From assembly GCA_963847705.1 (NCBI GenBank), contig CAWKBC010000009.1:1-41781 (forward strand): a stretch of DNA of 41,781 bases. The letters are read 5' to 3'. Shown here in pieces: positions 7,707 to 35,089 of this stretch. Position 1 is the first letter of the stretch. Each line of letters opens with the position of its first letter. The notes under the pieces are model-generated. The model had not been told where the DNA came from. It was given only the letters and a program-made list of their open reading frames with translations, and ran no database searches. Both the position numbers and the translations under genes were made by a program. The DNA is from an uncultured Pseudomonadota bacterium. Its GTDB lineage: Bacteria > Myxococcota_A > Polyangia > Fen-1088.

Positions 7707-9515
7707 ATGCCGGGAGGTTCCCAGGGACTCTGGTCGTTTCGGCGACGCCGGCCGTGGTGGACCATCGCGTGCTGCGTGGTCGCCTGCGCCCTGGGCGCCT
7801 CGGCCTGCGGCGGCGGTCAGCCGGCGGCGCGCGGCTTCGGATCGACCGAGCTCGAGCCGATCCGGGATTCCACCCTCTACCTCGAGGGTGAAAATGGTCC
7901 GGGCATCCTCGTCTACGGGACTGGCGGTCCCGGGGGCGTCCCTCAAAGCGGGACCTACTGGACGCTCGACCTGTCGACCGGCGCGGTCCAGAGCTACGGG
8001 TCCCAGGCGCCGCCGCCCCCGGCATCCTCCTCTTCGCCGCCGCCCCCGCCGTCGCCTTACTCCTGCGGCGTGGCCGTCGACGGAACCGGGACCATGTTGA
8101 CACTCCAGATCGTGGACAACGACACGGGCACGGAGACCGACATCGCCAACTTCGTCTCCTCTGCCCAGTGTCCCGGCGCGGATGGCATCCTGATCGCGTT
8201 CACCATCGACGCGAGCGGCAACACGGTGCTGTCGACCGGCCCGTTCACCGCGCTCGCACCGGTGCCTCTCGCCCTGCAGGTGAACGGCGTCGACTGGTGG
8301 AGCTACGATCCCGTCACCGGCCTCCCCACGGCGGTGACGGTGCAAGGTGCGTTGCCGTCGGCGCCGGACGAGCTCGGCGTTTACACCATCGATCTCTCCT
8401 CGTACGCGATCGCCCCTGACGTCCCGGCCATCCCGGCCAGCGTCGCCTGGGCCACCGGCGCGATGCCGGCCGGCTCGTTGCAATCGACCTCGGTGGAGGG
8501 CCCGGCGCTCTCGTTCGGCGACCACTACCTCTATCCGCGGAAGATGAGCGACGCCGGGACGACGATGTTCGCCGGGCCGTTCTCGTCAGGACCGGCGAGC
8601 GAGCTGGCGTTGTTTCAGGTTCCCCCGGGGACGCCGCTTCCGGGGGCCCAGGGGATCGGCTCCAGCGACTCCTCCGCAGGCTACTCTGTGACGTCGTCGC
8701 AGCTGATCGGCTGGCAGCTGAACGGCGTGGCGGGGGCCTCCAGCGATCTCATCGTCTGGGACGACGTCAACCAGCAGGTGACCGCCTGTCCGTCGTCGCC
8801 GCAGGCCCATCTGGCCGGGGTCCGCTCGTCCGACGGCAGCAAGGTCCTGTTCGTGACGCCGCAGTCGTGCTGCCAGTACCTGGGGTCGGGGCCGCTCAGC
8901 TTGCTGACGCTCGGGAACGGTCAGGGGAACACCGGCAGTTGCACGCAGCTCGCCGCCTCCGACGTGGTGACCGCCGCCTTTTCGCCGGACGGGAGCGCCA
9001 TGTTCTGGATGATCCAGCCGACCACCGGTGACACGCAACTGTGGGTCGCCGCAGGTGACGGCAGCGGCGCGCACATGATCGGGGCGGGCGTGTTGCAGAA
9101 CGTTCACTTCGTCGTTCCTGGAGAGGCCCAGCTGGAGCTGATCCTGAACGGCGATCTCGTCTGGCTCGACCTGCACGACAGCACCGTCCAGCTGCACTAC
9201 GTCGCCGAACAAGTCTTCGAGGAGATCTACGACATCGGGGTGGGCGGCTGGCTGATCACGGGCTACGACTACAGCACCCAGGCGGCCACGGCCACGGTGG
9301 GGCTCGTCAACCGCAACACGGGCGAGAAACGTCCGATCTCCCCTGACGTCTCGCAGTTCATCGTCCTCCTCGAGACGGCCGGCGCGGATGGGGGACTCTT
9401 CGCGGGCTCCTCCGGCGAGAGCGTGCTCGACGTGATCTACGTGGTGCGCGGTCGTAACCCCTCGCCGCAGGACGGGATCTGGTCGGCGACGATCACGACG
9501 GCCGACCTTCAGTGA
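7707..9515 (+). CDS. hypothetical lipoprotein, beta-rich (possible beta-propeller)
   Basis: RRRR plus hydrophobic stretch plus ASAC lipobox. SSDGSKVLF and FSPDGSAMFW are TolB/WD40-like blade motifs. The stop overlaps the next start (GTGA). Confidence 0.65.
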   Translation: MPGGSQGLWSFRRRRPWWTIACCVVACALGASACGGGQPAARGFGSTELEPIRDSTLYLEGENGPGILVYGTGGPGGVPQSGTYWTLDLSTGAVQSYGSQAPPPPASSSSPPPPPSPYSCGVAVDGTGTMLTLQIVDNDTGTETDIANFVSSAQCPGADGILIAFTIDASGNTVLSTGPFTALAPVPLALQVNGVDWWSYDPVTGLPTAVTVQGALPSAPDELGVYTIDLSSYAIAPDVPAIPASVAWATGAMPAGSLQSTSVEGPALSFGDHYLYPRKMSDAGTTMFAGPFSSGPASELALFQVPPGTPLPGAQGIGSSDSSAGYSVTSSQLIGWQLNGVAGASSDLIVWDDVNQQVTACPSSPQAHLAGVRSSDGSKVLFVTPQSCCQYLGSGPLSLLTLGNGQGNTGSCTQLAASDVVTAAFSPDGSAMFWMIQPTTGDTQLWVAAGDGSGAHMIGAGVLQNVHFVVPGEAQLELILNGDLVWLDLHDSTVQLHYVAEQVFEEIYDIGVGGWLITGYDYSTQAATATVGLVNRNTGEKRPISPDVSQFIVLLETAGADGGLFAGSSGESVLDVIYVVRGRNPSPQDGIWSATITTADLQ

Positions 9516-11811
9516 GCCCGCGGCCCGTCGCCGCGTTGGTGCTGGGCCTGGGGCTCGTCACGCGGGCGGCGTTGGCGCTCGAGCCCGCCCGCGACGGGGG
9601 TGTCGACGGGACGATCGCAGACGCCGAGGCGCAGCGCGACGGGGCGGCGAACCCGCCGGAGGCCGGGGCGGACGCCGCGCCGCCCGACGGGGGGATGATG
9701 GGTCGCGCGCCGCCCGACGCCGTCGGTCCGTCGATGGTCGTGCCGGTGGCGGGGCGCGTGCTGGAGAAGGGGACGCGCAATCCGATCGCGGGCGCGGCGA
9801 TCGCCGTCGACGAGGCCGTCCTGGGCGAGACCGACGCCGATGGACACTTCCAGCTGACGCTCCCCGCGGGCTCGCACGAGCTGGCGGTCGTGATCGGCGG
9901 TCAGGAGGTCGTGCGCCGGCAGATCGAGCTCACGGCGGGGGTCCCGGCCGAGGAGCAGATCTTCCGCGTGCTCACCGGCGCCAGCGGCACGCGCTACGCC
10001 ACCAAGGTTCGCGCCAGTCGCCCCGAGATCCCGAAGGTCGAGGTCTCCGGCGAGGAGGCGCGCCAGCTGCCCGGCTCGTCGGGCGATCCGCTGCGCGTGC
10101 TCGGCTCGCTGCCCGGCGTCGTGCAGATCGCCTGGCCGGCAGCGCTCTACGTGGTGCGGGGCGCCAATCCGGGCAACACCGGCTTCTTTCTGGACGGCAT
10201 TCGCGTGCCCGAGCTGTTTCACCTGGGGCTCGAGCTGTCGGTCATCCATCCCTATTTGATCGACGGCGTCGATTTTTACCCGGGCGGAGCGCCGGCCAAC
10301 TACGGCCCTTACGTCTCGGGGATCATGGCCGCCCGCACCGTCGCGCCGCCCGCCGATCGCGTCCATGCCGCCGCCGACGTGACCGGCTTCGACGCCGGCG
10401 GGATCATGACGGCGCCCTGGGACGGTGGGCGCGGCACCGTGCTCGTCGCCGCGCGCTACTCGTACACCGGCGCGCTGTTCTCCGCCCTGCAGAACGATAC
10501 GATCCTGCGCTACGGCGACTATCAGCTGCGCGTCGACCATTCGTTCGCCGGCGGGCAGGCGACGTTGTTCGCCTTCGGCGCGCTCGACGACGTCGGCTGG
10601 ACCAACCTCGCCAGCACCGAGGAGTACGGGGCGCTGCAGTTCCATCGCCTCGATCTGCGCTGGCGGCGCGCGCTCGGCGGCGGCCGGCTGCTCCTCGCCT
10701 GACCGGCGGCGCTGACTGGGCCACCTCGACGCTGTTCAGCAGCGCCATCAAGGTCCGGGCCCTCTCGGCCATGCCGCGCGCGATCTACACGCGCCCGCTC
10801 AGCGCCTGGCTCGACCTGGAGGTCGGCGTCGACGCCAACGCCCAGACCTTCGCCACCGATGTCCCCGCCTTTCAAGGCAAGCAGAGCGATCTCGGGCGGC
10901 CGCGCCAGGCGCTGTCGCAGGCGACGTACGCGACCGTGATGATCCACGCCGGCGACCGGCTGGTGATCTCGCCCGGGCTGCGCGCCGATCTGTTCGCCGA
11001 GGAGGGGACGCAAGCGTTCTTCCTCGCGCCGCGCCTGGATCTGCTGTTCAAGATCAGCGAGACCCTCTCCCTCCGGGGCGACGGCGGGCGATACGCGCAG
11101 ATGCCCAGCCTCCCGGTGAGCGTGCCGGGGTTCGAGGCGTTCGGCCTCGCCGATCTCGGGGCCCAGACCTCGCTGGGCGGTTCGCTGGGTGTCGAGGCGC
11201 GCCTGCCGGGACGCCTCACCCTCGCGGTCACCGGCTACTACCAGAAGCTGCGCGTCAGCGATGTGCGCAACATCGACATCGAGCAGAACGATCCCACCGC
11301 CCCCGACTTCCTGGTGGCGCGCGACGGCCGGGCCTACGGCGCCGAGTTGCTGTTGCGGCTCGCCGACACCGGACGCGGCAACGGGCGATTGTTCGGCTGG
11401 CTGGCCTACACGCTCTCCTGGAGTCTGCGCTATGACGACGACGGCGTGCTCGGCCGTTCCGATTGGGACGAGCGACAGATCCTGAACCTCGTCGCCGGCA
11501 GCCGGCTGGGGCGCAACTACACCGTGGGCGCGCGCTTTCACCTCAACACCGGCCGCTGGGCGCCGGTGGTCGGCGGCGCGGGCGACTACCAGCAGCTCCC
11601 CACCTACTACCAGCTCGACCTGCGCGCCGAGCGCCGCTTCGTCTTCGATCGCTTCGTGATGGACGTCTACGCCGACTTCGCCAACGTCACGCACGACACC
11701 GAGGTCCTGCAGCTCGACTCCGTCTACGATCCGAAAACGGGCGGAATGACGATCGCGCAGGACCGGATCAACCTGACCCTCCCCACCGTCGGGCTGCACG
11801 CGCAGTTCTGA
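9512..11811 (+). CDS. TonB-dependent receptor with N-terminal carboxypeptidase-regulatory-like domain; frameshift at ~10699
   Basis: GRVLEKGTRNPIAGA extension, plug motifs GDPLRVLGSLPGV, YVVRG and FYPGG, and barrel ending LPTVGLHAQF (terminal Phe). Adding one C at CTCGCC(C)TGACC joins ORF 9512-10702 to the frame of ORF 10771-11811. Confidence 0.8.
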
Positions 11812-11947
11812 ACGCGATCTGCAATGGGGATGGTGAGCCTGGCACCCACCTGTCTGGATGGCGCGGCGTTCCAGCTGTCCTGACGCGCCGGCGCGCTGAC
11901 GCGGCGACGGTTCAGATCGAAATGGCCGGTCGTGCGTCTGGACCGGT

Positions 11948-14900
11948 ATGACCACCAAACTCGGTTCCTCTCCACGCGGCTTCTCTGTCCTTGGCCCAGT
12001 CCGATTCCTGGGCCGACTCCTGGGCCGTCTCCTGATTTGGGGCCTCGTCTCCCTCGTCGCCGGCGACCAGGCCCGCGCCGGGGGCGTCGTCGTCGCGGCA
12101 CCGCCGCCCATCAGCCTGACCGCCTCGGACGGGGCTGGGCTGGAGCTGGTGTCGCTGTCGGCCGACGCGGCGATCGACGATCCGCTCGCCTTCACCGAGC
12201 TGCACCTGACCTTTCGCAACCCGGAAAACAGGGTGCGTGAGGGGCGCTTCCGGATCACGCTGCCGTCGGGTGCCACGATCAGCCGGTTCGCGATGCGGAT
12301 CGGCGATCGCTGGCAGGAGGGGGAGGTCGTCGAGCAACAGGCGGCCCGCGTCGCCTACGAGGACTTCCTGCACCACAAGCAAGACCCCGCGCTGCTGGAG
12401 GCCGAGGCGGGCAACGAGTTCTCGGCGCGCGTGTTTCCGATCCCGGCCGCGGCGACCAAGGAGATCGTCATCTCCTATGCGCAGGAGCTGACGCGCGCGG
12501 GTGAGCCCTACCGGCTGCCGCTGCGGGGACTGCCCCGTCTCGGGACGCTGGCGATCCGCGCGGTCACCGATGTCGGAAAGACCGAGACGCGGCTCGAGCG
12601 GCGCGACTTCAGGCCCGACGCCGACTTCGAGCTGCCGCACCAGGTCCCGGGCGGCCGCCTCGGCCTCCGCGACGACAACCTCGTCGTCGCGCGCGTCGTC
12701 CCGCTCGCCCAGACGACAGCGAACGAGGAGATCGGCGACCTCCAGGTCCTGATCGACACCAGCGCGTCGCGCGCGCTCGGCCTGCGAGACGAGGCCGCCG
12801 CGGTCGAGCGGCTGCTGACGGAGCTGCGCAAGAGCGGCGATCCGGCGATCACCGTCGCCGCCTTCGACCAGGACGTGGTCCCGCTGTTCGCCGGCAAGGC
12901 CAGCGCGGGGCTCGGGGTCGTGGAGAAGCGGATCGTGGCCCGCGGTGCGCTCGGCGCCTCCAATCTCGAGCGCGCGCTCGGCTCGCTGGAGGTGCCCGGC
13001 AGGTCGCGCCGCTCGCGCCTGTTGCTGGTGACCGACGGCGTGGCCACCGCGGGCGAGATCACCGCCGACAAGCTTGGCGCGCGCGTGGCGGCGCTGGGGC
13101 GCTTCGGAGTTCAGCGGCTCGACGTCATGGCGGTGGGCGGGATCCGCGACGACGTGATGCTTTCGCGCCTGGTGACGGCCGGGCTGGCGCACGATGGCGT
13201 GGTCCTCCGCGCCGACGAGGCAGCCCCGGAGCTCGTTCGCCGCCTCACCCACGCCACCCGGTCGGGGATCACCATCGCGGTCGACGGCGCCGGGTGGGTC
13301 TGGCCGAGCGTGGTCAACGGCGTCCAGCCGGGTGACGAGATCCTCGTCTACGCCGACCTGCCGCCCGCCGTTCCGTTCCGCCTGAAGGTCGCGGGCGCGC
13401 CGGTGGCGCTCGCCGGCGTGCTGACGCCGACGCCCCGCCCGCTGCTCGAGCGCGCCTGGGTGCGGGCCCGCATCGCGCGCATCATCGAGCAGCGCGACAC
13501 GATCGCCGCGAAGGATCGCGATCTGGCGGCGGCGCTGAAGAAGCAGGCGATCGACCTGTCGATCCAGAACCGCGTGCTCTGCCCGTTCACCTCGCTCCTG
13601 GTGCTGGAGACGGAGCAGGACTACGCGCGCTTCGGCATCGAGCGGCGCGCGCTGGCCGACATCCTCACCGTGGGCCCGAGCGGCGTCACGCTGCTTCACC
13701 GGGTCGAGGTCGCGGCGCCGGCCGCAGAGCCGCGCTGGTCGACCGCGGCCGAGGACCAGGCGCTCCCGGCCGACGCGCGTGCGTTGGCCAAGGGCGAGGC
13801 GGCGAGCTTCGGCGAGGAAAAGGCCAAGCAGGTTGACGCGCGCTCGCGGCCCGACGGGCTCGAGATGGAAGAGTCATTCGACCGCGGCCCGGCCGGCGCG
13901 CCGGTGGCGGCCCAGGCCGCGGCACCCCCGCCACCGGCGACCGTCAGGCCCGAGCCCTCCGCGACGGCGCTCGAAGATCTCGACGGCGCTCGAGGCGCCA
14001 GCGCCAACGCCGTGGGCGGCCAGGCCCATGCGGCGCCCCTGCCGATGCGCGCCGCCCGTCCGCGGGGCGCAATCGCAGTTCCCGACGAGGCGGCTGTCTC
14101 GGAAGGGGCGTCGGAAGGGGCTTCGCGCGGAGCGGCGCCTGTCGTCGGTCCGTTCCAGGAGATCCTCGGCCTCATCCACGCCGGCCGGGCGCGCGAGGGT
14201 CTGGCGCGCGCCTTCGCCTGGCGCGACCGCGATGCGGGCGACGTGCTCGCGCTGGTCGCGCTCGGCGAGTGCTTCGAGGCGCTGCGTGACGCCCCGGACG
14301 CGGCGCGGGCCTACGGATCGATCATCGATCTCTTCCCCGGGCGCGCCGACATGCGCCGGTTCGCCGGCGAGCGCCTGGAGCGCGTGGCGGGCGGGCGTCC
14401 GCTGGCGCTGGCCATCGACAGCTACCGCAAGGCCGTCGAAGAGCGTCCCGATCACCCGGCCGGCCACCACCTGCTCGGCTTCGCCTTGCTGAAGGCCGGG
14501 CATCCGCGCGAGGCGTTCGAGGCCCTCGTCATCGGAGCCGCGCAGAAGTATCCGGCGGGCAGGTTTCTGGGCGTCGATCGGATCCTGCGCGAGGACCTCG
14601 GCCTCCTCGCCGCCGCCTGGACCCACGCCGAGCCTGCGCGCGCCGGCGAGATCCGCGAGCGCCTGCTGCGCGCGGGCGGCACGCCGGAGAGCGGCCCGTC
14701 GATGCGCTTCATCCTCAACTGGGAGACCGACGCCAACGACGTCGACTTCCACATCCACGACGCGCGCGGCGGCCACGCGTTCTACAGCGCGCCGCACCTG
14801 CCCTCGGGCGGAGATCTCTACGCCGACGTCACGACCGGCTACGGTCCGGAGTGTTTCACCATCCGCGGGCCTGCCGGCGGCCGCGCCGCCCCATATCAGC

Positions 14901-17241: not shown

Positions 17242-17980
17242 TCAATCCGCGAACGGACGCAGGATCTCGCCCTTGTTGGGGGTGCCCCCGCCGGCCTGCC
17301 AGGTGCCGTCGGGGTTCATCACCTCGTAGCCCGCCAGCCTCATCGGACGGGTGGTGATCGGATCGATCGACGACAGAAACCCCATGTGGAGGTGCGGGGT
17401 GGTCGCGTTGCCCGAGTTTCCACAGCGGCCGAGCAGGTCACCGCGGTGCAGGTGGTCGCCGACGTGGACGGCGACCGAGTGGGCCGCCAGGTGGCGAAAC
17501 TCGGTGTACTCGCCGGCGGCATGCTCGAGGATGACGTAGTTCCCCTCGTCGTGTCCCTTCACGTAGGCCGGCCAGTCGCGCGCGCCACCGTGCGCGACCA
17601 CCACTGTTCCATCGGCGGGCGCCAGCACCGGCCGGCCGTAGCAGACGAAGCGCGCCAGCGGCGCTCCGTGTCGTGGGGCCCGGGTGCCGATCGGCTGCGC
17701 CGGGACGAAGTCAATCGCGTAGGCGGCGTAACCGATGTGCGTGTCGCCGCTCTCGAACCCCTGAATGACACCCCAGGTGCCTGAAAACGGAAGCGACAGC
17801 CGCGTCAGCTGGGGGGGCGGCGGAATCGGACGAGGTGCCAGCGAGCGTGGGTGCGTTGTCGGCGGGTGCGTCGTGCGGGGGCGCTTCACGCGTCGTTCCC
17901 GAGACGACCGGGAGGGGAAGCAGCAGGTTGACGGCCAGGCCGGCGAGCGCGGCCAGGCTCCGGGTCGACGGTCGAGTCAT
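17242..17980 (-). CDS. M23-family metallopeptidase; probable +1 frameshift separates the signal peptide from the catalytic domain
   Basis: Catalytic frame 17242-17889 has THIGYAAYAIDF, PVLAPADGTVV, GNYVILEH and GNSGNATTPHLH. ATG 17980 overlaps the lanB stop (ATGA) and encodes a signal peptide in another frame. Removing one base from the G7 run at 17811-17817 (or the G4 run at 17914-17917) fuses the two frames. Confidence 0.75.
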
Positions 17981-20880
17981 CTCGATTTGCGCAGCCCTTC
18001 GAGCGTTCGCTCCCAGAAGGTGTAGCCCAGTCGTTCGGCGTCCGGGTCGGAACCAATCAGGCGCACGGCAGAGAGGTGCAGCAACGTTGGTAAGAGCCGC
18101 GCGCGGTCGGCCTCCATCAAATCGCTCGCTGCCGCGGCGACCCGCGCCTGGTGGCCGGCCAGGAGCGGGTCGGCGGCCGGCGCAGCGCCGAGCGCGGCCC
18201 GCAGGCTGCGCGCCTGGAGCCGAAAGACCGCGTCCGATTCCTTGCGCGCCTCGGCGTCGAGCCCGGTCCAGCTTTCCGCCGCCCGCCGGCGCTCACGACC
18301 GACCGCGTGGCGCGCCGCCAGATCGAGCCCCAGCCCGCGCGCCAGCGCGTCGAACAGCAGCGGCAGGGTCGCGATACGGTCGAGCTCCGGATCGGAGAGC
18401 AGCGCGGACACGGCCTCACTGTCCGACTCGAAGATGGCGTGAATCGCTGCCAGGTCGCCGGCGAAAAATCGACCGCGCTCCGGAAAGTAGTCGCCGGTCT
18501 CGAGCGAGGCGAGCGTGCCGTCGGCGCGCGCCGATTCGAGCGCGCGCCGCAGCCGCCGCTCGAAGGCCACCGGGTCACCGTCCGGGGCGTGGGCGCGGAG
18601 GCGGAGGTGCGGCCGCGCGCCGGGGCCGTCGAGATAGCGGAGGAAGAACCAGGCGTCGACCTCGGCGGCGGCGCGCGCCTCGGTCACCGCCGGCAGGACG
18701 GTCCGGGTGAGGAGGCGGTCCTGCCGGGCGGACGAGCCGAAAAGCTTGAAGGTGCGCCAGCCGGCCAGTGGCGGCTCCTGGCGTGGCGGCGGGACGCGCC
18801 CGGCGCGGGCTGTGCGCGGGGCAGGGGGCGTCTCGCCATCGCCGTCCTCGTCGACGACGGCGACGATGGCCTCCACGCGGCGTCCGTCCCGATCGACGAC
18901 CGACGCCAGCGGCGGCCAGATCTCGAACACCCGCTCGTGGGCGGCCAGATCGGCGGCCACGCCGGGCGCCAGCAGATCGAGGGGGTAGAGCTCGTCGCCT
19001 TCACCGACCTGGACCATCCGTGGCACGCCGGCCGCGCGCCGCCAGCGCCCCAGGGCTCGCCCGGCGCCCGCGGGCTTCAGCCCCTGGCGCAGCTCCGGCG
19101 GCAGGCGCCAGCTGGCGGGGGCGATCACGAACCCATCGACGACGATGCGGGGAAGGAACGCCAGCTCGGCGAGCGGGCCCGGCGTGAAGGCCCAGGGGGC
19201 GTGCTGGCGCTGCAGGCTCCACCCGACGAGCAGCTGGGCGGCGCCGGGCGCCGCGGTCGCCGACCGGGCGCGCAGGAGAGGCGAGGGGACGATCGTCATT
19301 GCACCCGGAGCCCTCAGCGTCAGCGCCTGCGCATCCGACGGATCGGCCTCGAGCTCCAGATCGCCGGCGGCCAGGTCACCACCGGCCGCGCTCCAGCGGG
19401 ACAGCGCCAGCGCGCGCGGGCGGATGGGCGGGTGGGTGCCAAGGTCGGCCAGGGCGGCGCTGGGCGCGAACGCCACGTCGACCCGCTCTTCATCGGGGCG
19501 CAGGCGGCGCTCGGCGGCGGCGATCTCCGCGCAGGCGTCGGCGAGCGGGGCGCCGAGGGCGTGGATGAAGCGCCCCAGGGACGCGCCGGCCGGGGCGTGC
19601 AGGCCCAGCAACCAGCCGGTGCCGGCAGGCGCTCCCGGCGGCCGCGGCGCCGGGACCAGGAAGAGCTCGGCCGTGGGCGGCAGCGGCGTCCCCGCCAGAT
19701 CGCCGAGCGCGGCCTCGAGCGCGGTGAGGTCCAGCGTGACCTCGCGCCGTTTGGTGCGTGCCGCCGCGACGATCGCGTCGCAGAGGAGGACCAGCAGCGC
19801 CGGCGGCGCGGCGGCCACCGAAGCCTCGGCAACGGTCCCCGCATCCTCGACGTCCACCCCGTAGTCGCCGGCGGCGAGCGCCCCCAGAGCGAACGCGCCG
19901 GCACCGAAGATCTCCGTCGAGGCATCGAACGCGTCGTTCCAGGCCCGCGCGCTGAAGCGCTCCGAGAGGGGCGGGGCCAGCGCCTCCTGCAGGCGGCAGA
20001 GCAGCGGGACCAGCCGCGCCGCGCGCGCAACGGCCGTCCGTTCGAGGCGCGGCGGCTTTCGCGCCTGCAGGGTCAGCACCGCCGTGACGTCGGGGGCCGC
20101 CCGACCGGGAAGCGCCGCCCACAGGGCGCGGCCGCGCGCCAGCTCGCCGGCCGCGAAGGCGGCCTGGGCCTGGTCGAGCGCGCGCGCTTCGGCCTGCCGG
20201 CCGAGCGCCACCAGCCGGTCGCGCAGGTAGCTGGCGGGCGGCGGCCCGATCAGCGGCGGGGAGAGATCGGTCTGCAGGAGCCCGTCGTGGACCAGGGTGC
20301 GCAAGAGCTCGTCGAGATCGCCGGCCTCCGGCTGGGCGGCCTGGGCACGCGCCCGGACTGCCGGCCAGGGCGCCCAGTCGGTCGTGGCCGCCAGCACCGC
20401 GGTCAGCGCCCGCGCCCCGTCGAGGTCTGCGGTGCACGGCCCGTCGAGCTCTTGGCCGGGGCCGACCCAGCCCACCTCGACACCGTCCGTCCAGACCGAG
20501 GGGGCGGCCCGCAGCCGGACCTGGTCGCGGATCTCCGGCTCGTCGAGCAGCGCCAGGGCCAGGGCGTCGACCCGGGCCCAGCTGGGGGCGAGGTGCGGCG
20601 CCGGGGTGCCAGTCGCGATCTCGGTCTTCGGTCCGAGCTCCCCCACGCAGACGCCGGCCAGAAGGCCGCTCGGCGTGGCGCGAAAGGCCGCCCGTCGCGC
20701 ATAACGCGTGAGCGATCGCTCCCGCGCCGGTCCCGCCGCGGCGGCCGCCAGCGTCGGGCTGGCGACCGCGATCGCCGCCGCGCCCAGCGGATGCGCGGTC
20801 AGCGCCCGCGCGGCGCGCGCGAGCGACGCCGTGGGAAGCAGCGGTGCCCGGAGCAGGAACCGCGACAGCGGTACGTACAC
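17977..20880 (-). CDS. lanB: class I lanthipeptide dehydratase LanB-like (glutamylation + elimination domains)
   Basis: N-terminal FLLRAP, YARRAAFRATPSGLLAGV, GASLGRF, FLPRIVVDGFVIAPASWRL. C-terminal WFFLRY..PHLRLR, YFPERGRF, IFESDS, LLHLSAVRLIG. 967 aa. Confidence 0.85.
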   Translation of the reverse strand: MYVPLSRFLLRAPLLPTASLARAARALTAHPLGAAAIAVASPTLAAAAAGPARERSLTRYARRAAFRATPSGLLAGVCVGELGPKTEIATGTPAPHLAPSWARVDALALALLDEPEIRDQVRLRAAPSVWTDGVEVGWVGPGQELDGPCTADLDGARALTAVLAATTDWAPWPAVRARAQAAQPEAGDLDELLRTLVHDGLLQTDLSPPLIGPPPASYLRDRLVALGRQAEARALDQAQAAFAAGELARGRALWAALPGRAAPDVTAVLTLQARKPPRLERTAVARAARLVPLLCRLQEALAPPLSERFSARAWNDAFDASTEIFGAGAFALGALAAGDYGVDVEDAGTVAEASVAAAPPALLVLLCDAIVAAARTKRREVTLDLTALEAALGDLAGTPLPPTAELFLVPAPRPPGAPAGTGWLLGLHAPAGASLGRFIHALGAPLADACAEIAAAERRLRPDEERVDVAFAPSAALADLGTHPPIRPRALALSRWSAAGGDLAAGDLELEADPSDAQALTLRAPGAMTIVPSPLLRARSATAAPGAAQLLVGWSLQRQHAPWAFTPGPLAELAFLPRIVVDGFVIAPASWRLPPELRQGLKPAGAGRALGRWRRAAGVPRMVQVGEGDELYPLDLLAPGVAADLAAHERVFEIWPPLASVVDRDGRRVEAIVAVVDEDGDGETPPAPRTARAGRVPPPRQEPPLAGWRTFKLFGSSARQDRLLTRTVLPAVTEARAAAEVDAWFFLRYLDGPGARPHLRLRAHAPDGDPVAFERRLRRALESARADGTLASLETGDYFPERGRFFAGDLAAIHAIFESDSEAVSALLSDPELDRIATLPLLFDALARGLGLDLAARHAVGRERRRAAESWTGLDAEARKESDAVFRLQARSLRAALGAAPAADPLLAGHQARVAAAASDLMEADRARLLPTLLHLSAVRLIGSDPDAERLGYTFWERTLEGLRKSR

Positions 20881-20887
20881 GGCGGGG

Positions 20888-20893
20888 AGATTA
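20888..20893 (-). promoter_or_regulatory. putative -10 box (TAATCT) 7 nt before the lanB GTG; leaderless
   Basis: An AT-rich hexamer in a GC-rich spacer, with no Shine-Dalgarno sequence. Confidence 0.5.
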
Positions 20894-20908: not shown

Positions 20909-21532
20909 TCAGTTGTAAGGGCTCGCCTCGGGGGGGCGGTCGATGGCCTGAATCGGCATGGGCGGACGGGTCGGATCGTTGATGTCGGTGGTGGGCTGGT
21001 TCTCTTCCTGGATCCGCCCGGCCGAAACGGCGTCGAGGTTGTCGCCCATGCAGCTGTCCACCTCGAGGCCGAGCGCGCTCACCCGATCGTGCACCTGACT
21101 GATGACGTCGAACTCGGTCCGCATCACGATCGGCTCGGCCTTGAAGGTGCGCAGCATCAGCATGCGCGGAGAGGCCAGGTTCGAGAGCGTCTTCATCTGG
21201 GCGATCTTGTCGTCGATGCAGGTCATGCGGATGATGTCGTGCGAGCGGTAGGCGACGATGCGCACGTCCTGGGCGTGCTCGATCGCGGTCTCCATCTCGG
21301 CCGCGTATTTGGGCGCCAGGATCATCATCTGCTCGGAGGTGTACTTGCTGTCGGCCGGCGCGTTGGGCAGCGCGTTGGCGAGCTGCCCTTCGTTCACCAT
21401 CTGGGTGGCGATCGTGCGGTTGAGATCTGGCTTGGGCGGAGCGGTCACCTGATCCGCCGCGTAGACAGCCCCCCCGAGCGCGCAGAGCGTGACGGCGACT
21501 TTGACGAACCTTCCCCGCATGGAGAGGTCCAT
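20909..21532 (-). CDS. hypothetical secreted helical protein
   Basis: Signal peptide ending AVYA, two mature-region Cys (MTCIDDK, DSCMG), a Pro-rich tail RPPEASP, and strong GC3 bias. Confidence 0.75.
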   Translation of the reverse strand: MDLSMRGRFVKVAVTLCALGGAVYAADQVTAPPKPDLNRTIATQMVNEGQLANALPNAPADSKYTSEQMMILAPKYAAEMETAIEHAQDVRIVAYRSHDIIRMTCIDDKIAQMKTLSNLASPRMLMLRTFKAEPIVMRTEFDVISQVHDRVSALGLEVDSCMGDNLDAVSAGRIQEENQPTTDINDPTRPPMPIQAIDRPPEASPYN

Positions 21533-21709: not shown

Positions 21710-23848
21710 CTACGGCATGCGGCAATTCTCGGCGCCGGCGGCGGGGAGGTAGCAGTTGTTGGTGTAGTCGATGACCATCCGGTCGGTGTTGAAGCGCCAG
21801 CCGAGCGTGCGCATGGTCCGCTTCATCCGTTCGACCCAGCCGTGCGGGACATTCTGGTCGTTGCGCTCGTAGTAGGTCGGGATGATCACGTTCTCCAGTG
21901 TCTCGTACAGCGAGGCGGCGTCGCGCCGATCCTGCTCCTCGACGGAGACGTGCGTGATGCCGTCGCCGATGGCGAAGCCGTTGAGGCCGTCGTACGCCTC
22001 CGCCCACCAGCCGTCGAGCACCGAGAAGTTGAGCCCGCCGTTGAGCAGCGCCTTCTGTCCGCTGGTGCCGCTCGCCTCCTGCGGGCGGCGCGGGTTGTTC
22101 ATCCAGACATCGACCCCCTGGACCAGGTGGCGGCCGACGTTGATGTCGTAGTCCTCGATGAAGATGACGTGGTTCTTGAGGTCGCCGGCGATGGCGGCGT
22201 CGTGCACCTGGCGCAGCACCTCTTGTCCGGGGCGATCGGCCGGGTGCGCCTTGCCCGAGAAGACCAGCTGCACGGGGCGCTTCGGATCGGTGAGGAGGCG
22301 CTTGAGGCGGGGCAGATCGCTGAAGATCAGGCTGGCCCGCTTGTAGGTCGCGAAGCGGCGCGCGAAGCCGATGGTCAGCGCCTCCGGATCGAGCGCGGTC
22401 TGGGCGGCGGCGATCGAGTCGTCGGGGTACTCGCTGCGCCGGCGCTGCTCCGAGACGCGGCGGCGCACGAACTGGACCAGCGCCGCCTTCAACACCCGGT
22501 GCGTCTCCCAGAGCTCGGCGTCCGGGATGCTGTCGATGCGTGACCACATCTGCGGGTCGGCCAGGTGCTCGCGCCAGTCGGTGCCGGCGTACTTCGAATA
22601 GAGGTCCTGCATCGCGGGGGCGAGCCAGGTCGGGACGTGCACGCCGTTGGTGATGTGACCCACCGGGACCTCGTCCTCGCGGTGGTGGGGCCAGAGCACC
22701 TGCCAGGACTTGCGCGTGATCCGGCCGTGCAGCGCCGAGACGCCGTTGGCGTAGCGGGACATCTTGAACGCCAGCACCGTCATGCAGAGCGCCTCGCGGT
22801 GATCGTCCGGGCGGATGCGGCCGAGGCCGAGAAAGTCGGGTTGCGACAGCCCGAGCGAGCGGCGCAGCGGCTCCAGGTGATCGTCGACCAGCTCGGGCGG
22901 GAAGCGGTCATGCCCGGCGTCGACCGGCGTGTGGGTGGTGAAGACGGTGTTCTGCGCGACCTCCTGCGCGCAGGTGCGGAAGTCGGCCCCCGTCTGCTCC
23001 ATCAAGAAGCGGGCGTATTCCAGGGTGGCGAAGGCGCTGTGCCCTTCGTTCAGGTGCAGGCCCCCCCAGTGGATGCCGGCGGCCCGCAGCGCCCGGATTC
23101 CGCCCACGCCGAGCAGCAGCTCCTGCCGGATGCGGATCCGCTGATCGCCGAAGTAGAGGCGGGCGGCCAGCTGCCGGTTTTCTTCGGAGTTGCCGTCGAC
23201 GTCGGTGTCGAGCAGCAGGAGCTTGTTGCGCCCGACCGCGATCTCCCACACCTGGGCCAGCAGCGTCTCGCGCGAGAGCGGAACTTCGATAATGATCGGC
23301 TTGCCGGTCGGGGTCCTGGCCGGCTGCGCGGGGAGCAGCTCCGCCGGCGAGCGGACGTACTCGGCGTGCTGCCAGCCGTCGCGGCTGATGTGTTGCCGGA
23401 AGTACGACTCCCGGTAGAAGAGGCCGACCGCCACCAGCGGCAGCCCGAGGTCGGAGGCGCTCTTGAGGTGGTCGCCGGCCAGGACGCCGAGGCCCCCCGA
23501 ATAGATGGGCAGCGACTCGTGGATCCCGAACTCCGCCGAAAAGTAGGCGACCGGCCGCACCCGGAGCGGCCCTGCGTTGACCGAGGCCCAGGTGCGGGTG
23601 GCGCCCAGGTACTCGCGCAGCTCGCGGTGGGCGCTGTCGACCCGGGCCCGCAGGACGGCGTCGCGCGCCTGGTCTTCCAGGCGATCCAGCGAAAATCCGG
23701 CCAGCACGGAGACGGGATTGTGGTTCGCGGCGCGGAAACCATCGGGATCGAGGTCCCGGAACAGCTTGATGATGTGGGGGTTCCAGGCCCACCACAGATT
23801 GACGGAGAGATCTTTGAGCTGACTGAGTAGCTTTTCGCCGGGGGTCAT
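21710..23848 (-). CDS. glgP: alpha-glucan (glycogen) phosphorylase
   Basis: AYFSAEFG, YSGGLGVLAGDHLKSASD, HLNEGH, FARRFATYKRA and EASGTSGQK (PLP lysine). Confidence 0.96.
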   Translation of the reverse strand: MTPGEKLLSQLKDLSVNLWWAWNPHIIKLFRDLDPDGFRAANHNPVSVLAGFSLDRLEDQARDAVLRARVDSAHRELREYLGATRTWASVNAGPLRVRPVAYFSAEFGIHESLPIYSGGLGVLAGDHLKSASDLGLPLVAVGLFYRESYFRQHISRDGWQHAEYVRSPAELLPAQPARTPTGKPIIIEVPLSRETLLAQVWEIAVGRNKLLLLDTDVDGNSEENRQLAARLYFGDQRIRIRQELLLGVGGIRALRAAGIHWGGLHLNEGHSAFATLEYARFLMEQTGADFRTCAQEVAQNTVFTTHTPVDAGHDRFPPELVDDHLEPLRRSLGLSQPDFLGLGRIRPDDHREALCMTVLAFKMSRYANGVSALHGRITRKSWQVLWPHHREDEVPVGHITNGVHVPTWLAPAMQDLYSKYAGTDWREHLADPQMWSRIDSIPDAELWETHRVLKAALVQFVRRRVSEQRRRSEYPDDSIAAAQTALDPEALTIGFARRFATYKRASLIFSDLPRLKRLLTDPKRPVQLVFSGKAHPADRPGQEVLRQVHDAAIAGDLKNHVIFIEDYDINVGRHLVQGVDVWMNNPRRPQEASGTSGQKALLNGGLNFSVLDGWWAEAYDGLNGFAIGDGITHVSVEEQDRRDAASLYETLENVIIPTYYERNDQNVPHGWVERMKRTMRTLGWRFNTDRMVIDYTNNCYLPAAGAENCRMP

Positions 23849-23858
23849 GGGCCGGGGG

Positions 23859-23908
23859 AATATAAACCAGTTTTTCGTCGGCGCTCACCGGCGGGAAATG
23901 GTTATAGT
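23859..23908. promoter_or_regulatory. closely spaced divergent -10 boxes for glgP and glgC
   Basis: Minus-strand TATATT at 23864-23859 and plus-strand TATAGT at 23903-23908, within an 87-bp AT-enriched spacer. Confidence 0.55.
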
Positions 23909-23935
23909 TGGCCGGCCAGATCGCGCACCCAAACA

Positions 23936-25192
23936 ATGGACGGACAGCAAAGGTTCATCGCGCTGGTCATGGCCGGCGGCAAAGGCTCTCGGCTCTTCCC
24001 GCTGACGCTCGACCGCGCCAAGCCGGCGGTGCCCTTCGGGGGGCGTTACCGGATCATCGATTTCGTCCTCTCCAACCTGGCGAACTCCGGCGTGCGCTCG
24101 GTCTACGTGCTGACGCAGTACAAGTCGCAGTCGCTGGCCGAGCACGTCCAGCGGACCTGGGGGGCGCGCAGCTCCTACGACGCCTTCGTCACCGTGGTGC
24201 CCGCGCAGATGCGGATGGGAGAATCCTGGTACCGCGGCACGGCGGACTCGGTCTTCCAGAACCTCCATCTGATCGAGGAGTATCGCGGGGACGCGGTGCT
24301 CGTCTTCGGGGCGGACCACATCTACAAGATGAACATCCGCCAGATGACCGACTTCCACTTCCAGAAGGGGGCCATGGCGACGATCGCCTGCCTGCCGATC
24401 AAGAAGTCGGAGGCCAACCAGTTCGGCATCGTCCAGGTCGACGAGCAGTGGCGGGTGGTCGGCTTCCAGGAGAAGCCGGAGAACGACCCGGTCACCATCC
24501 CCGGCGATCCCGAGCACTGCCTGGGCTCGATGGGGAACTACGTCTTCGCCCCGGGCCCGCTCATCGAGGAGCTGCGGGCCGACGCGGAGCGCGAGTCGCA
24601 CCACGACTTCGGCCGCAACATCCTGCCGGCGATGGTCAAGTCGGGCAAGGTGTTCGCCTACAACTTCGGCCTCAATCGCATCCGCGGGGTCTCCGACGAG
24701 GTGGAGAACGCCTACTGGCGCGACGTGGGGACCATCGACGCCTACTACGAGGCCAACATGGACCTCAAGAACGTGGTCCCCAGCCTGAACCTGTACAACT
24801 GGGACTGGCCCATCGTCACCGCCAACTACCCCGACCCCCCCGCCAAGCTGGTGTTCGACGAGGATGTCCGGCGCGGCATCGCTCTCCAGTCGATCCTCTC
24901 GGGTGGCTGCATCGTGGCCGGCGGGTTCGTCAAGGACTCGGTGCTGGGGCGGAACGTCTTCATCGACGCCGGTGCCCGGGTCGAGGCTTCGATCCTGTTC
25001 GACAACGTCTACGTCGGCCGCAGCGCGCACGTCAGCCGCGCCATCGTCGACAAGAACGTGCGCGTCCCCGAAGGGGATCACATCGGGCACGACCTGGCGC
25101 GCGACGCCCTCCGCTACACGGTGAGCGAAGGGGGGATCACCGTCGTCCAGAAGGCGCGGGACACGCTGCTCACGAGATCGCGAAACTTCTGA
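23936..25192 (+). CDS. glgC: glucose-1-phosphate adenylyltransferase (paralog 1)
   Basis: AGGKGSRLFPLT.DRAKPAVPFGGRYRIIDF, WYRGTADS, ADHIY, FQEKP, SMGNYVF, YWRDVGT and a C-terminal beta-helix. Confidence 0.96.
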   Translation: MDGQQRFIALVMAGGKGSRLFPLTLDRAKPAVPFGGRYRIIDFVLSNLANSGVRSVYVLTQYKSQSLAEHVQRTWGARSSYDAFVTVVPAQMRMGESWYRGTADSVFQNLHLIEEYRGDAVLVFGADHIYKMNIRQMTDFHFQKGAMATIACLPIKKSEANQFGIVQVDEQWRVVGFQEKPENDPVTIPGDPEHCLGSMGNYVFAPGPLIEELRADAERESHHDFGRNILPAMVKSGKVFAYNFGLNRIRGVSDEVENAYWRDVGTIDAYYEANMDLKNVVPSLNLYNWDWPIVTANYPDPPAKLVFDEDVRRGIALQSILSGGCIVAGGFVKDSVLGRNVFIDAGARVEASILFDNVYVGRSAHVSRAIVDKNVRVPEGDHIGHDLARDALRYTVSEGGITVVQKARDTLLTRSRNF

Positions 25193-25193
25193 C

Positions 25194-27410
25194 GTGGCGC
25201 AGTCGTCGTCATCCCCGCCGTCTCATCTGCCCATCGCGCTCGTGGTCCACGGGCACTTCTACCAGCCGCCGCGCGAGAACCCCTGGACCGACCAGATCCC
25301 GCGGGAGCCCTCGGCGGCGCCGTTCCACGACTGGAACGAGCGCATCCACGCCGAGAGCTACCGGGCCAACGCCTTCGCGCGCATCCACGCCGCCGACGGA
25401 CGGATCGAGTCGATCGTCAACAACTACGAACGGCTGTCGTTCAACGTCGGCCCCACCCTGGCGCGCTGGATCGCGCGGCAGGATCCCGCGGTGGCGGCCC
25501 GGCTGCGCGCCGCCGACGAGGAGCAGCGGCAACGGCTGGGGGCGGGCGGTGCCATCGCCCAGGCCTATGCGCATCCGATCATTCCGCTCTGCGATCCGGC
25601 CGACCGTCGGACGCAGCTCCTCTGGGGGCTGCAAGACTTCGAGCGAAGGTTTGGCCGCCCGGCCGACGGACTCTGGCTCCCCGAGACGGGCGTCTCCCCG
25701 GCCACGCTGACCGCGCTCATCGACCTCGGGGTCTCGTACACGATCCTGGCGCCCGAGCAGATCGACGGCGTGCGGGCCGGAGCCGGCGACGAATGGGTGG
25801 ACGTCGATCGCGACAGCCTCGACACCGGGCGCGTCTACAACTGGCGCCACCCCGACGGCTCGGGGCGGACCATCGCGCTCGCCGTGTTCGACGGCCAGAT
25901 GTCGCGCGCGGTCGCCTTCAGCGACGCCGCCAGCCGCGCCGAGAGCCTGCTCGACGCCGCCCGCGCCTCGGCCGACCGCTCGAAGGCGGGCGGACAGCGG
26001 CTGGTCCTCTGTGCCTCGGACGGCGAGCTCTGGGGGCATCACAAGAAGTTCTCCAATCTGACGCTGGCCTTCGCGACGCGCGTCGAGGCGGCCCGGCGCG
26101 GGGTCGAGGTGACGAACCTCGGCGCCTACCTGGCGACCCACCCTCCGGTCTGGGAGGCGCGGCTCGCCCCCGGGCCCGACGGCGAAGGAACCGCCTGGAG
26201 CTGCGGGCACGGCGTGGGACGCTGGCGGCGCGATTGCGGCTGCAACATGGGGAGCGGTCCCGGCTGGAATCAGGCCTGGCGCGGACCCCTGCGCCGCGGG
26301 CTCGATCTGATCCGCGACGCCGCCGCGCGCTTCTATGAGGACGCGGCCGGGGAGCTCCTGGTCGACCCCTGGGGGGCGCGCGACGCCTATGGCGCGGTGG
26401 TCGACGATCCGATCCCGGTGCGCGATCGGGCGATGGAGTCGTTCGGCCGGCCGGCGCTGGCGGCCGGCGGCGAGGCGGCGCGCGAGCGGGTGCGGCACCT
26501 CCTGGAGCTGCAACGGGCGACGCTGCTCATGTACGCGAGCTGCGCCTGGTTCTTCGACGACATCGCCGGCCTGGAGGCCTCGCTGGTGATCCGGATCGGC
26601 GCGCACGCGATGGATCTGATGCGCCAGGCGGGGGGAACGCCGCCCGTGCGTCAGGTGCTGGAGGCGCTGGCCGAAGGGAAGAGCAACCTTCCCGAGGCTG
26701 GCAACGGCGCCGACGTTTTCCGCAAGGTGGCCGAGCACCAGGTGACCGCCAGCCAGGCGGTCGCGGGCGCCGCCCTGGAGGCGCTCGTCTCACCCCAGGC
26801 GTTCGACACCCAGGCGGTGCCCGGTTTCGACGTGACGCTTTCGGGGCATCTGGAAGAAGCGGCGCCCGGGCTGCGGCGCCTGGAGGGGACGGCGCGAGCC
26901 CGCCAGAGACGGCTGGGGGTGGAGGAGGAGCTCACCTTCACGGCGATCACCCGGCCCGACGGGCAGTTCGAGGCGCGGGTGGGCGGACGGCGGCTGTCGC
27001 TCGATGATCTGGGCGACGAGGCGCGGGGGACGCTGGTGATGGGAGCGTTGCCGATGCTGCTGCCGGAGATCCGCTCGCCGAAGGTGGCGCGGCTGGTGGC
27101 GGCGGCGGCGCGTGAGGTCCCGCCCGACGGTGACACGCCCGCGGGCGTCGCCCGCCGGACGCTGCTCGCGCGTGTCGTCTCGATTCTGCTCGGGGAGGGT
27201 GAGGAGACGCCGGGCGCCGAGACGCTGCAGATCTGCGGTGCGCTGTTCGACCTGCTGGCGCTCCCGGCCGGCTCGCCTGAACGGCGCGCCATCGAAGAGC
27301 GGGTCTGGGCGTTGATCGCGCGGGGCCGCCCCAACCCGGCGCTGCGCGCGTTTTCCGAAAAAGTCGGCTTCGCCCGGGGCGACACCGAGAGCGAGACCGC
27401 CACTTCCTGA
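25194..27410 (+). CDS. GH57-family glycoside hydrolase with DUF3536
   Basis: HGHFYQPPRENPW, HDWNERI, SFNVGPTL, WLPET, DGELWGHH, WSCGHGVGRW and MYASCAWFFDD. Confidence 0.88.
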   Translation: MAQSSSSPPSHLPIALVVHGHFYQPPRENPWTDQIPREPSAAPFHDWNERIHAESYRANAFARIHAADGRIESIVNNYERLSFNVGPTLARWIARQDPAVAARLRAADEEQRQRLGAGGAIAQAYAHPIIPLCDPADRRTQLLWGLQDFERRFGRPADGLWLPETGVSPATLTALIDLGVSYTILAPEQIDGVRAGAGDEWVDVDRDSLDTGRVYNWRHPDGSGRTIALAVFDGQMSRAVAFSDAASRAESLLDAARASADRSKAGGQRLVLCASDGELWGHHKKFSNLTLAFATRVEAARRGVEVTNLGAYLATHPPVWEARLAPGPDGEGTAWSCGHGVGRWRRDCGCNMGSGPGWNQAWRGPLRRGLDLIRDAAARFYEDAAGELLVDPWGARDAYGAVVDDPIPVRDRAMESFGRPALAAGGEAARERVRHLLELQRATLLMYASCAWFFDDIAGLEASLVIRIGAHAMDLMRQAGGTPPVRQVLEALAEGKSNLPEAGNGADVFRKVAEHQVTASQAVAGAALEALVSPQAFDTQAVPGFDVTLSGHLEEAAPGLRRLEGTARARQRRLGVEEELTFTAITRPDGQFEARVGGRRLSLDDLGDEARGTLVMGALPMLLPEIRSPKVARLVAAAAREVPPDGDTPAGVARRTLLARVVSILLGEGEETPGAETLQICGALFDLLALPAGSPERRAIEERVWALIARGRPNPALRAFSEKVGFARGDTESETATS

Positions 27411-33835: not shown

Positions 33836-35089
33836 CTAGATCGTCACGTTGTCGAGGATGATGCCGTTCTTGGGGACGATGACGATCCCCTCACGGATGA
33901 AGTAGCCGTCGCCGTCCTTCTCCTTGATCCCGGCCTCGTTGACGATCCGGACGTTGCTGCCGATGCGCGCGTTCTTGTCGATGATGGCGTTCTCGATCAC
34001 CGTCTTCGATCCGATCCCCACCGCCGGGATGCCGCGGGCGATGGTCGCCTCCATGTCGGCCAGCGTCTCGTAGAAGTCGGCGCCGATGAGCAGGCTGTTG
34101 CGAATGCGGCACTGGGCGCCGATGCGGCTGCGGATGCCGACGATGGCGCGATCGATCTCGGCCCCGTGCATGATGCACCCCTCGGAGATGAGCGCGTTGT
34201 GGATGTTGCAGCGCTCGAGCTTGGAGGCGGGCAAGAATCGCGGGTGCGTGTAGACGGGGTGATCCTCGTCGTAGAAATCAAACGGCGGGATCGCCTCGCA
34301 CAGCGCCAGGTTGGCCTGGAAGTACGACTGGATCGTCCCCACGTCCTCCCAGTAGCCGCGGTAGACGTGCGCCTGCACCCGCTGGCGGGGAACCGCGTCG
34401 GGGATGACGTGCCGGCCGAAGTCGACCAGCCGCGGGCTGGCCAGCGACTGCTCCAGCACCTCGCGCTTGAACAGGTAGATGCCCATCGAGGCCAGGTGTC
34501 CCTGCGCGCCGCCGGGGAGATCGGAGAGCAGCGCCGGCAGACGATCGGCGGGCGGCTTCTCGTCGAAGTGGACGATCCGTCCGGTGGCGTCCATCTTGAG
34601 GATGCCGAACGCCCCGGCCTGTTCGGGGGAGACCGGGATGACCGCCACGGTGGCGTCGGCGCCGCTCTCGCGGTGGGTCTTGATCATCTCCCGGTAGTCC
34701 ATGTTGTAGAGCTGATCGCCGGAGAGAATCAGCAGGTCGCGGCCGGTCGTGCGCCGCATGTGGCGCAGGCTCTGGCGGACGGCGTCGGCGGTCCCCTGGA
34801 ACCAGTTGCCCCCTTCTTCGGTCTGCTCGGCGGCCAGCACGCTGACGAAGCCCGACGAGAAGACGTCGAACTTGTAGGTGAACGCGACGTGCTTGTTGAG
34901 GCTCTCCGAGTTGAACTGCGTGAGCACGAAGATCTTGCGCACGTTGGCGTTCAGGCAGTTGCTGATCGGAATGTCGATGAGGCGATACTTGCCGCCGATC
35001 GGAACCGCCGGTTTCGATCGTTTGAACGTGAGCGGAAAGAGGCGCGTGCCGCGTCCGCCACCGAGGATGATCGCCAACACGTCGTCCAT
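33836..35089 (-). CDS. glgC: glucose-1-phosphate adenylyltransferase (paralog 2, cyanobacteria/plant-like motifs)
   Basis: ILGGGRGTRLFPLT.KRSKPAVPIGGKYRLIDIPISNCLN, LTQFNS.SLNKH, WFQGTADAVRQ, SGDQLY, FDEKP and IIDKNARIG. Confidence 0.95.
   Translation of the reverse strand: MDDVLAIILGGGRGTRLFPLTFKRSKPAVPIGGKYRLIDIPISNCLNANVRKIFVLTQFNSESLNKHVAFTYKFDVFSSGFVSVLAAEQTEEGGNWFQGTADAVRQSLRHMRRTTGRDLLILSGDQLYNMDYREMIKTHRESGADATVAVIPVSPEQAGAFGILKMDATGRIVHFDEKPPADRLPALLSDLPGGAQGHLASMGIYLFKREVLEQSLASPRLVDFGRHVIPDAVPRQRVQAHVYRGYWEDVGTIQSYFQANLALCEAIPPFDFYDEDHPVYTHPRFLPASKLERCNIHNALISEGCIMHGAEIDRAIVGIRSRIGAQCRIRNSLLIGADFYETLADMEATIARGIPAVGIGSKTVIENAIIDKNARIGSNVRIVNEAGIKEKDGDGYFIREGIVIVPKNGIILDNVTI

Follow-up and report, generated by a model that had tools for sequence, protein, structure and literature searches.

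A full-length LanB protein without a LanC partner forms a stand-alone, single-copy subfamily across one order of Polyangia

The presence of a LanB enzyme is taken to mark a lanthipeptide or thiopeptide cluster. The described enzymes NisB (4WD9/6M7Y), MibB (5EHK) and MadB (9G04) carry two domains per chain and belong to clusters of patchy distribution, with LanC, LanA and LanT beside LanB. We have analysed a LanB gene from contig CAWKBC010000009.1 of a Polyangia genome (6.1 Mb, ~69% GC, 84.7% complete as assembled), the window being this whole contig of 41.8 kb. The encoded protein shares with NisB, MibB and MadB the two domains per chain, the full-length fold and the same active-site residues. 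Unlike in those systems, no LanC, LanA or LanT lies beside the gene and no LanC was found in the genome, the counterparts of NisB D121 and D299 are replaced, and the identity to the three proteins is 14-23%. The gene is also single-copy, concordant with genus and set in a changing gene context. It represents a distinct, single-copy, stand-alone LanB subfamily across one Polyangia order.

The nearest LanBs of the same class were those of canonical Polyangia lanB-lanC clusters (L098-L108, ~28-33% identity), where LanC is adjacent or fused in 8/11 and most have a visible Cys/Ser/Thr precursor. The split dehydratases (TbtB 6EC7, GodF 9JHQ; TbtD/PbtD/TsrE) resemble it in Glu-tRNA-dependent dehydration without LanC, and TbtB also lacks both aspartates in our profile alignment, with Ser at the D121 position and Thr at the D299 position. 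However, thiopeptide, pyritide and goadsporin systems employ two proteins in clusters with YcaO and a precursor, whereas here both domains are on one chain and no second elimination domain (PF14028) was found elsewhere in this genome. The peptide aminoacyl-tRNA ligases (PEARLs; LanB-C; TglB, BhaB) are likewise LanB-related, tRNA-dependent and LanC-independent. In the accessible part of PMC11962472, which sets out the LanB-A/B/C division, PEARLs are without the elimination domain; the orphan LanB has an intact PF14028 with its residues in place, in line with the contrast drawn in the original prediction. Isolated "LanB only" genes, including Haliangium ochraceum Hoch_0066, appear in Table 1 of Marsh et al. 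2010 (PMC3091789); as presented in the accessible part of that paper they are scattered singles with no function proposed, described as isolated cases and not as an order-wide conserved subfamily. Our protein is thus a member of the LanB-A family, yet it does not fit the definition of a class I lanthipeptide, a thiopeptide/pyritide or a PEARL system. A parallel from another enzyme family, with other chemistry, is YcaO-TfuA, a RiPP-type enzyme (RiPP, ribosomally made and post-translationally modified peptide) that reportedly thioamidates a cellular protein, methyl-coenzyme M reductase. It too is said to be a lineage-wide stand-alone gene acting in trans, with a protein as its substrate, which for the orphan LanB is only inferred.

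The LanB gene and its parts were located as follows.

17977..20880, minus strand: LanB gene of LanB-A type, stand-alone, full-length, 967 amino acids, GTG start (PF04738 and PF14028, TIGR03891, fold)
18970..20793, minus strand: PF04738 glutamylation domain; R11, Y60, R63, R67, T69, R437, R578, E653 and E670 kept
20236..20580, minus strand: leader-binding-like region, residues ~101-215, three strands and three helices in the predicted secondary structure
18004..18759, minus strand: PF14028/TIGR03891 glutamate-elimination domain; R760, R762, E801, R804, H935 and R940 kept in 39/39 clade proteins
20888..20893, minus strand: -10-like hexamer TAATCT, 7 nt before the GTG start

Running the Pfam profiles bore out the two-domain architecture proposed for the 967-residue protein. 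PF04738 covered residues 30-637 (189 bits, cut-off 28) and PF14028 residues 708-959 (121 bits, cut-off 24.4) of the same polypeptide, which TIGR03891 also matched, and these were the single PF04738 and the single PF14028 match genome-wide. The AlphaFold model, built on a 26-row alignment, had a predicted local distance difference test score (pLDDT) of 87.4. In a full-length Foldseek comparison its template modeling (TM) scores ranged from 0.71 to 0.79 (0.78 for MadB, 0.71 for MibB, 0.72-0.74 for NisB). As modelled, the 17977..20880 protein has the whole LanB fold. Residues ~101-215, which we take to be a RiPP recognition element (RRE), occupy the place of the NisB leader-binding element, with a conservation of 0.56 in the clade versus 0.48 in the canonical set. 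Four orthologs of 853-871 residues (L062, L091, L092 and L094) miss ~60 residues of a helical hairpin (query ~220-278) and keep all catalytic motifs.

The NisB residues were traced in the protein by means of profile alignments to PDB 4WD9. For glutamylation, R14 corresponded to R11, Y80 to Y60, R83 to R63, R87 to R67, T89 to T69 and R464 to R437; for elimination, R786 corresponded to R762, E823 to E801, R826 to R804, H961 to H935 and R966 to R940. This agreed with the by-eye assignment of R14, Y80, R83, R87, T89, R464, R826 and H961 made earlier. The R786 counterpart was also present, but as R762 in PHLRLR and not as the arginine of FLRY, which is R748 (NisB R775) and is Pro in 7/39 clade members. 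The mapped catalytic residues were invariant in 26/26 orthologs; in a wider set of 39 clade proteins, R63, R67, T69 and R437 were found in all and R11 in 37 (2 gaps). Both active sites were thus preserved despite a mean column identity of 38-47% across the clade. That glutamylation and elimination residues are both kept is what coupled dehydration predicts, and on these residues the protein is likely an active enzyme. As to the loss of catalytic residues that had been named as a possible objection, none of the mapped residues is lost, but two aspartates are replaced: NisB D121 became S100 (S/A/T in the clade; Asp in 92% of 37 canonical LanBs) and D299 became L269 (L in the clade; Asp in 81% of the same 37). 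According to the accessible part of PMC4341554, NisB D121A and D299A were near wild type in vivo in L. lactis. A further 66 positions, clustered at ~286-345, 400-500 and 530-680, were conserved in the clade and not in canonical LanBs, and conservation in each of the eight measured regions was higher in the clade than among the canonical proteins, which is what a fixed substrate would lead one to expect.

The order considered here is one family of 89 genomes in 19 genera, known from metagenome assemblies. A protein search gave matches of any kind in 70/89 genomes, from which we have kept 68 with one ortholog locus each (67 at E <1e-40 plus one contig-edge fragment), excluding a canonical LanB in G001 and a 19-bit match in G040. 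A profile search of the same 89 genomes concurred (67 plus one canonical LanB). Fifteen of the 19 genera carry the ortholog, in all their genomes but one (25/26 in the own genus), and it was not found in the other four (g2 0/2, g11 0/13, g13 0/3, g18 0/2). Because a control core gene was detected in 86/89 genomes, including 18/20 of the four non-carrier genera, failed detection does not account for this absence. When 301 genomes of the class were sampled, strong matches beyond this family turned up in 8/10 genomes of family f27 and 1/3 of f19, counts that are floors from a stricter first look. No ortholog was found in 250 other genomes of the phylum (E 1e-100), viral contigs held no relative, and the ESM Atlas gave generic LanB clusters only. 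Among 1.84 billion representatives, full-length clade members scored at least 676 bits and the next full-length LanB 289 bits.

We have built a tree of 54 proteins, comprising 43 orthologs (one 685-residue partial sequence kept; loci with a cut or multi-frame gene and one with a long insertion left out) and 11 canonical Polyangia LanBs. The orthologs formed one side of a long branch against the canonical proteins, with 100 support in the Shimodaira-Hasegawa-like approximate likelihood ratio test (SH-aLRT; quick method). All seven multi-member genera were single clades, and the 17 genus-label changes on the tree are the minimum. The ratio of nonsynonymous to synonymous substitution rates (dN/dS) was 0.19-0.26 in 9/9 ortholog pairs; the clade is under purifying selection. 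In genera g14 and g16 the gene order is GT-C, LanB, alpha/beta hydrolase, followed in g14 by pxp-like genes (named by eye). In LanB-free g2 the hydrolase comes directly after the GT-C gene, and in g13 the same downstream genes come after it; no LanB remnant was found in 15/16 of these stretches, the other giving one marginal match (E 0.001). This order reads as a clean single-gene loss, with no substrate gene lost alongside. Since four genera do without it, the gene would be dispensable; for the order as a whole it behaves as near-core, with one copy, a putative promoter of its own, no partners and both active sites fixed.

The lack of the usual partners was then followed beyond the window. 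No match to PF05147 (LanC), YcaO or ABC (ATP-binding cassette) families was found among the 41 window open reading frames (ORFs) scanned, as had been noticed from the sequence, and a LanT exporter was found neither there nor in the two sets of neighbour families that occur most often (40 and 32 families). The PF05147 search of the own genome gave no LanC, its control matching nowhere, and a profile made from five Polyangia LanCs also had no match in the genome as assembled. The same profile, which recovered LanC in 6/9 control loci outside its training set, gave no match in six frames of 140 ortholog loci (1.8 Mb). The orphan state is the rule among the orthologs and no accident. Family-wide, LanC occurred in 2/89 genomes, one a non-carrier with canonical clusters and the other holding a 120-position partial match, that is, in 1/68 carriers. 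None of the 25 family genomes with a completeness of 90% or more and a contamination of 5% or less, 17 carriers of the ortholog among them, had LanC. YcaO was absent from the own genome (control positive in 5/14 genomes) and does not track LanB, with 7/68 carriers versus 7/21 non-carriers; 61/68 carriers have neither LanC nor YcaO. The LanM domain PF13575 was also not found in the own genome, in a search whose control matched nowhere.

With the catalytic residues kept and no cognate LanC, the best reading is the one the original prediction put forward, a non-canonical system that forms dehydroamino acids without LanC on a distant substrate. More specifically, we propose, with a probability of about 0.45, that this LanB uses Glu-tRNA to glutamylate a fixed cellular protein, encoded in trans, and then carries out the elimination. 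Anatomy, fold, residues, distribution and the absence of partners were observed, and from them we infer the activity, the tRNA and the type of substrate. By analogy with NisB/MibB/TbtB chemistry, the N-terminal site (Y60, R63, R67, T69, R11 and R437) would move Glu from its tRNA, Glu-tRNA(Glu), onto the hydroxyl of a Ser/Thr, and elimination in the C-terminal site (R762, R804 and H935) would yield dehydroalanine or dehydrobutyrine. No lanthionine ring would be made; the dehydro residue would either be left as it is or be attacked by a thiol or amine. The genomics would suit a conserved substrate, encoded in trans, and a housekeeping-type modification. The broader idea, that LanB left natural-product clusters and became a core, order-wide, tRNA-dependent protein-modifying enzyme that has neither a cluster for leader peptides nor a cyclase or exporter, seems to us possible at somewhat less than even odds.

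Several points weigh against modification of a cellular protein. To our knowledge, all characterised LanBs act on leader-bearing precursor peptides, and in the model the leader-binding region is retained and is conserved in the clade. A short precursor could be missed in a genome of this completeness. In the second family, LanC lies elsewhere in 4/4 g67 genomes and in G233, at least one of these LanCs being inside a separate canonical cluster. The PF04738 score is low beside the 425-567 bits of canonical LanBs, the clade departs from canonical LanBs at 35 positions that are conserved in the latter, and Y60 is present in 36/39 clade proteins, with W or F in three. Garg et al., whose E. coli work is quoted in the accessible part of PMC4341554, found dehydration abolished by D121A and D299A. 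The higher conservation within the clade may partly reflect a shorter divergence than that of the canonical set. The SH-aLRT tree shows vertical inheritance no further than the level of genera, and in several assemblies LanB falls in at least two frames, which we read as assembly indels.

The points on leader binding would fit an active dehydratase that works on a distant, short leader-bearing precursor and makes a linear dehydro-peptide (signal or morphogen), matured by general proteases and transporters. We rank this second, as rather unlikely. The gene caller has a floor of 25-30 residues, so that very short ORFs escape, and this leaves the proposal some room. However, no ORF of the own genome matched the leader pattern of Polyangia class I precursors, tblastn with seven such precursors gave no match there, and neither a Nif11 leader nor, among the 45 largest of 97 clusters (2865 short ORFs), a paralogous precursor-like family was found. 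Three C39 peptidase matches lie elsewhere in the genome, and no peptidase-ABC exporter was clearly intact and linked. Two radical S-adenosylmethionine (SAM) peptide systems, considered as partners and rejected, do not track LanB. The radical-SAM/PqqD system at C17:230338-233406 (G000) occurs in 42/89 genomes, with 0/11 in g12 and 0/5 in g6, and the radical SAM at C8:77495-78748 (G000) has a patchy presence in 40/89; in g12, where all 11 genomes carry LanB, the latter is without a close ortholog. If a protein is modified, this would be a new way of bringing dehydroamino acids into proteins, and the enzyme a possible tool; a linear dehydro-peptide from a distant precursor would be a new RiPP class. 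In either case the current database labels on clade proteins ("thiopeptide-type bacteriocin biosynthesis protein", "class I lanthipeptide synthase") overstate what carrier genomes can make.

A change in chemistry or acceptor, with Glu or another amino acid moved from tRNA to a protein or non-peptide and the ester kept, or with an altered C-terminal elimination or addition, appears improbable. The long branch, the 66 clade-specific positions and the loss of both aspartates and of the 35 canonical positions are compatible with it, and LanB relatives have been repurposed before, as PEARLs (PMC11962472) and pyridine synthases (PMC7268733), going by the accessible parts of both papers; against this, the elimination residues are kept in 39/39 together with the glutamylation residues. 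Still more doubtful is that the gene is a relic of a class I cluster, that its LanC lies elsewhere or unassembled, or that the product is a catalytically idle binding protein. The incomplete genome, the two lost aspartates and the finding of LanC elsewhere in 6/10 genomes tested of f27 and f19 speak for such a scenario, but the 25 high-quality family genomes are free of LanC, dN/dS is ~0.2 and the catalytic residues are invariant at 38-47% identity. The relic that the original prediction had allowed for is thus at odds with orthologs in 68/89 genomes and no cognate LanC elsewhere. We give hardly any credit to a single unit of LanB and the neighbouring M23 peptidase for cell-wall lysis or predation, which had also been suggested. 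In the own genus the two genes have an overlapping stop/start and adjoin in 18/18 loci; in 17 other genera they adjoin in 0/36, so the expected conserved link among homologs did not hold. Their distributions are independent as well, since M23 orthologs occur in 9/13 genomes of LanB-free g11 and in only 0/5 (g9) and 2/11 genomes of two genera in which all carry LanB. In the own genus synteny extends over the whole block and is no weaker for the flanking phosphorylase, GlgC, GH57, GH6 and phosphatase genes.

The two genes flanking LanB are the following.

17242..17980, minus strand: M23 peptidase gene; signal-peptide frame from 17980, M23 frame 17889-17242; neighbour at genus level only
20909..21532, minus strand: 207-residue predicted secreted Myxococcota hypothetical protein, upstream of LanB; not part of the system

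At the ATGA overlap, the ATG (17980) begins an 89-residue signal-peptide frame, and not that of the M23 domain, with one extra base at ~17824 in this assembly. Since three contigs of close relatives (two studies) are without this base, the break probably arose either recently or in assembly. An intact M23 gene of 207-243 residues starting at the overlap was found in 13/26 genus-level loci, most of the others being filtered or cut. The overlap with a secreted M23 peptidase described earlier therefore stands for the genus but not for this contig, where the gene is frameshifted as assembled.

No neighbour was common to more than 6/19 genera in 60 genome loci, which 80 added metagenome loci did not change, and no common short ORF was found within 700 nt of LanB in 139 loci. 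Three candidate partners were examined and rejected. The 207-residue protein is a neighbour in 5/19 genera only and belongs to a generic Myxococcota family with paralogs. The GT-C (PMT_2) gene upstream in g3 and g14-g17 is family-core (86/89 genomes); it is not a specific partner because non-carriers have it too, and it was retained as the control core gene. The glutamyl-tRNA synthetase (GluRS) gene lies 13 kb from LanB, and 4-8 kb away in loci of three genera, which we read as shared synteny; the genome has a single GluRS plus GluQ and two tRNA-Glu genes, with no tRNA-Glu in the window. The split between carriers and non-carriers among sister genera should make the substrate findable by profiling. 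As observations apart, the 207-residue family is Myxococcota-wide, with two conserved Cys, a C-terminal DPT...RP..ASxY tail and no Pfam match, and has two paralogs in this genome (G000, contigs C23 and C8). The window also holds a glycogen cluster (21713-27410 and 33836-35089; phosphorylase, two GlgC copies and GH57), and a phosphorylase-GlgC-GH57 block flanks LanB in six genera.

The -10 box proposed 7 nt upstream of LanB was confirmed as TAATCT at 20893-20888. A TAnnnT hexamer 4-10 nt before the start was found in 73/94 distinct ortholog upstream sequences, kin among these not being independent; the 94 came from 140 loci, the rest being cut, duplicate or without an anchor. For comparison, 462/4157 genes of this genome had such a hexamer, as did 0.5% of random positions. 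The box is conserved across differing gene contexts; under this rule it is absent from the rows of g3, g4, g6, g14-g17 and g19, and a sigma-70 scan (-35 and -10) gave no site. Among the sequencing runs searched, none of those listed as holding the sequence was an RNA run, and all shares were small. The hexamer suggests that the LanB gene is leaderless and independently transcribed from a putative promoter of its own. The genome-wide share of ~11% is 20 times the random rate, and from such start-proximal motifs leaderless transcription looks common in this lineage.

We have found no paper describing this LanB subfamily in the open-access literature. The accessible parts of PMC10352776 and of bioRxiv 10.64898/2026.07.10.737566 hold no description of it, and the antiSMASH cluster table of the latter may list the genes as clusters. 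A LanC-free full-length subfamily would be invisible to large surveys because these begin with LanC, as did the lanthipeptide survey in the accessible part of PMC7268733.

Separate orphan cases were seen on the canonical branch, where the full-length LanBs of L106 (G322, 8454-11600) and L108 (G298) had no LanC found in a 20-kb stretch. L107 (G290, 8345-14244), with the order lanA-lanC-zinc dehydrogenase-lanB, may be a dehydro-peptide cluster of the D-amino-acid (LanJ) type; its LanC is weak (31 bits), and its precursor is rich in Ser/Thr and free of Cys. Elsewhere in the own genome, the C17 system (L219) is a candidate RiPP locus with a 52-residue Cys-containing peptide, a kinase-like gene (by eye), PqqD/RRE and radical SAM/SPASM. 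At C32:268631-274552 (L220), another candidate locus, a short two-Cys peptide lies downstream of PqqD and radical SAM, adjoining a gene for a large secreted protein and one that by eye resembles peptidases. At C8:77495-79245 (L221), a Cys-rich protein that bears a YGxP motif comes after radical SAM/SPASM; in L103 (G252), a 49%-identical radical SAM lies between a YGxP-bearing 56-residue peptide and a LanC-LanB fusion, in a possible hybrid cluster. The same genome (G000) encodes four paralogous proteins of 57-73 residues with a conserved TQSSD.xFHCL motif, at C21:327879, C27:353980, C34:64296 and C40:155602.

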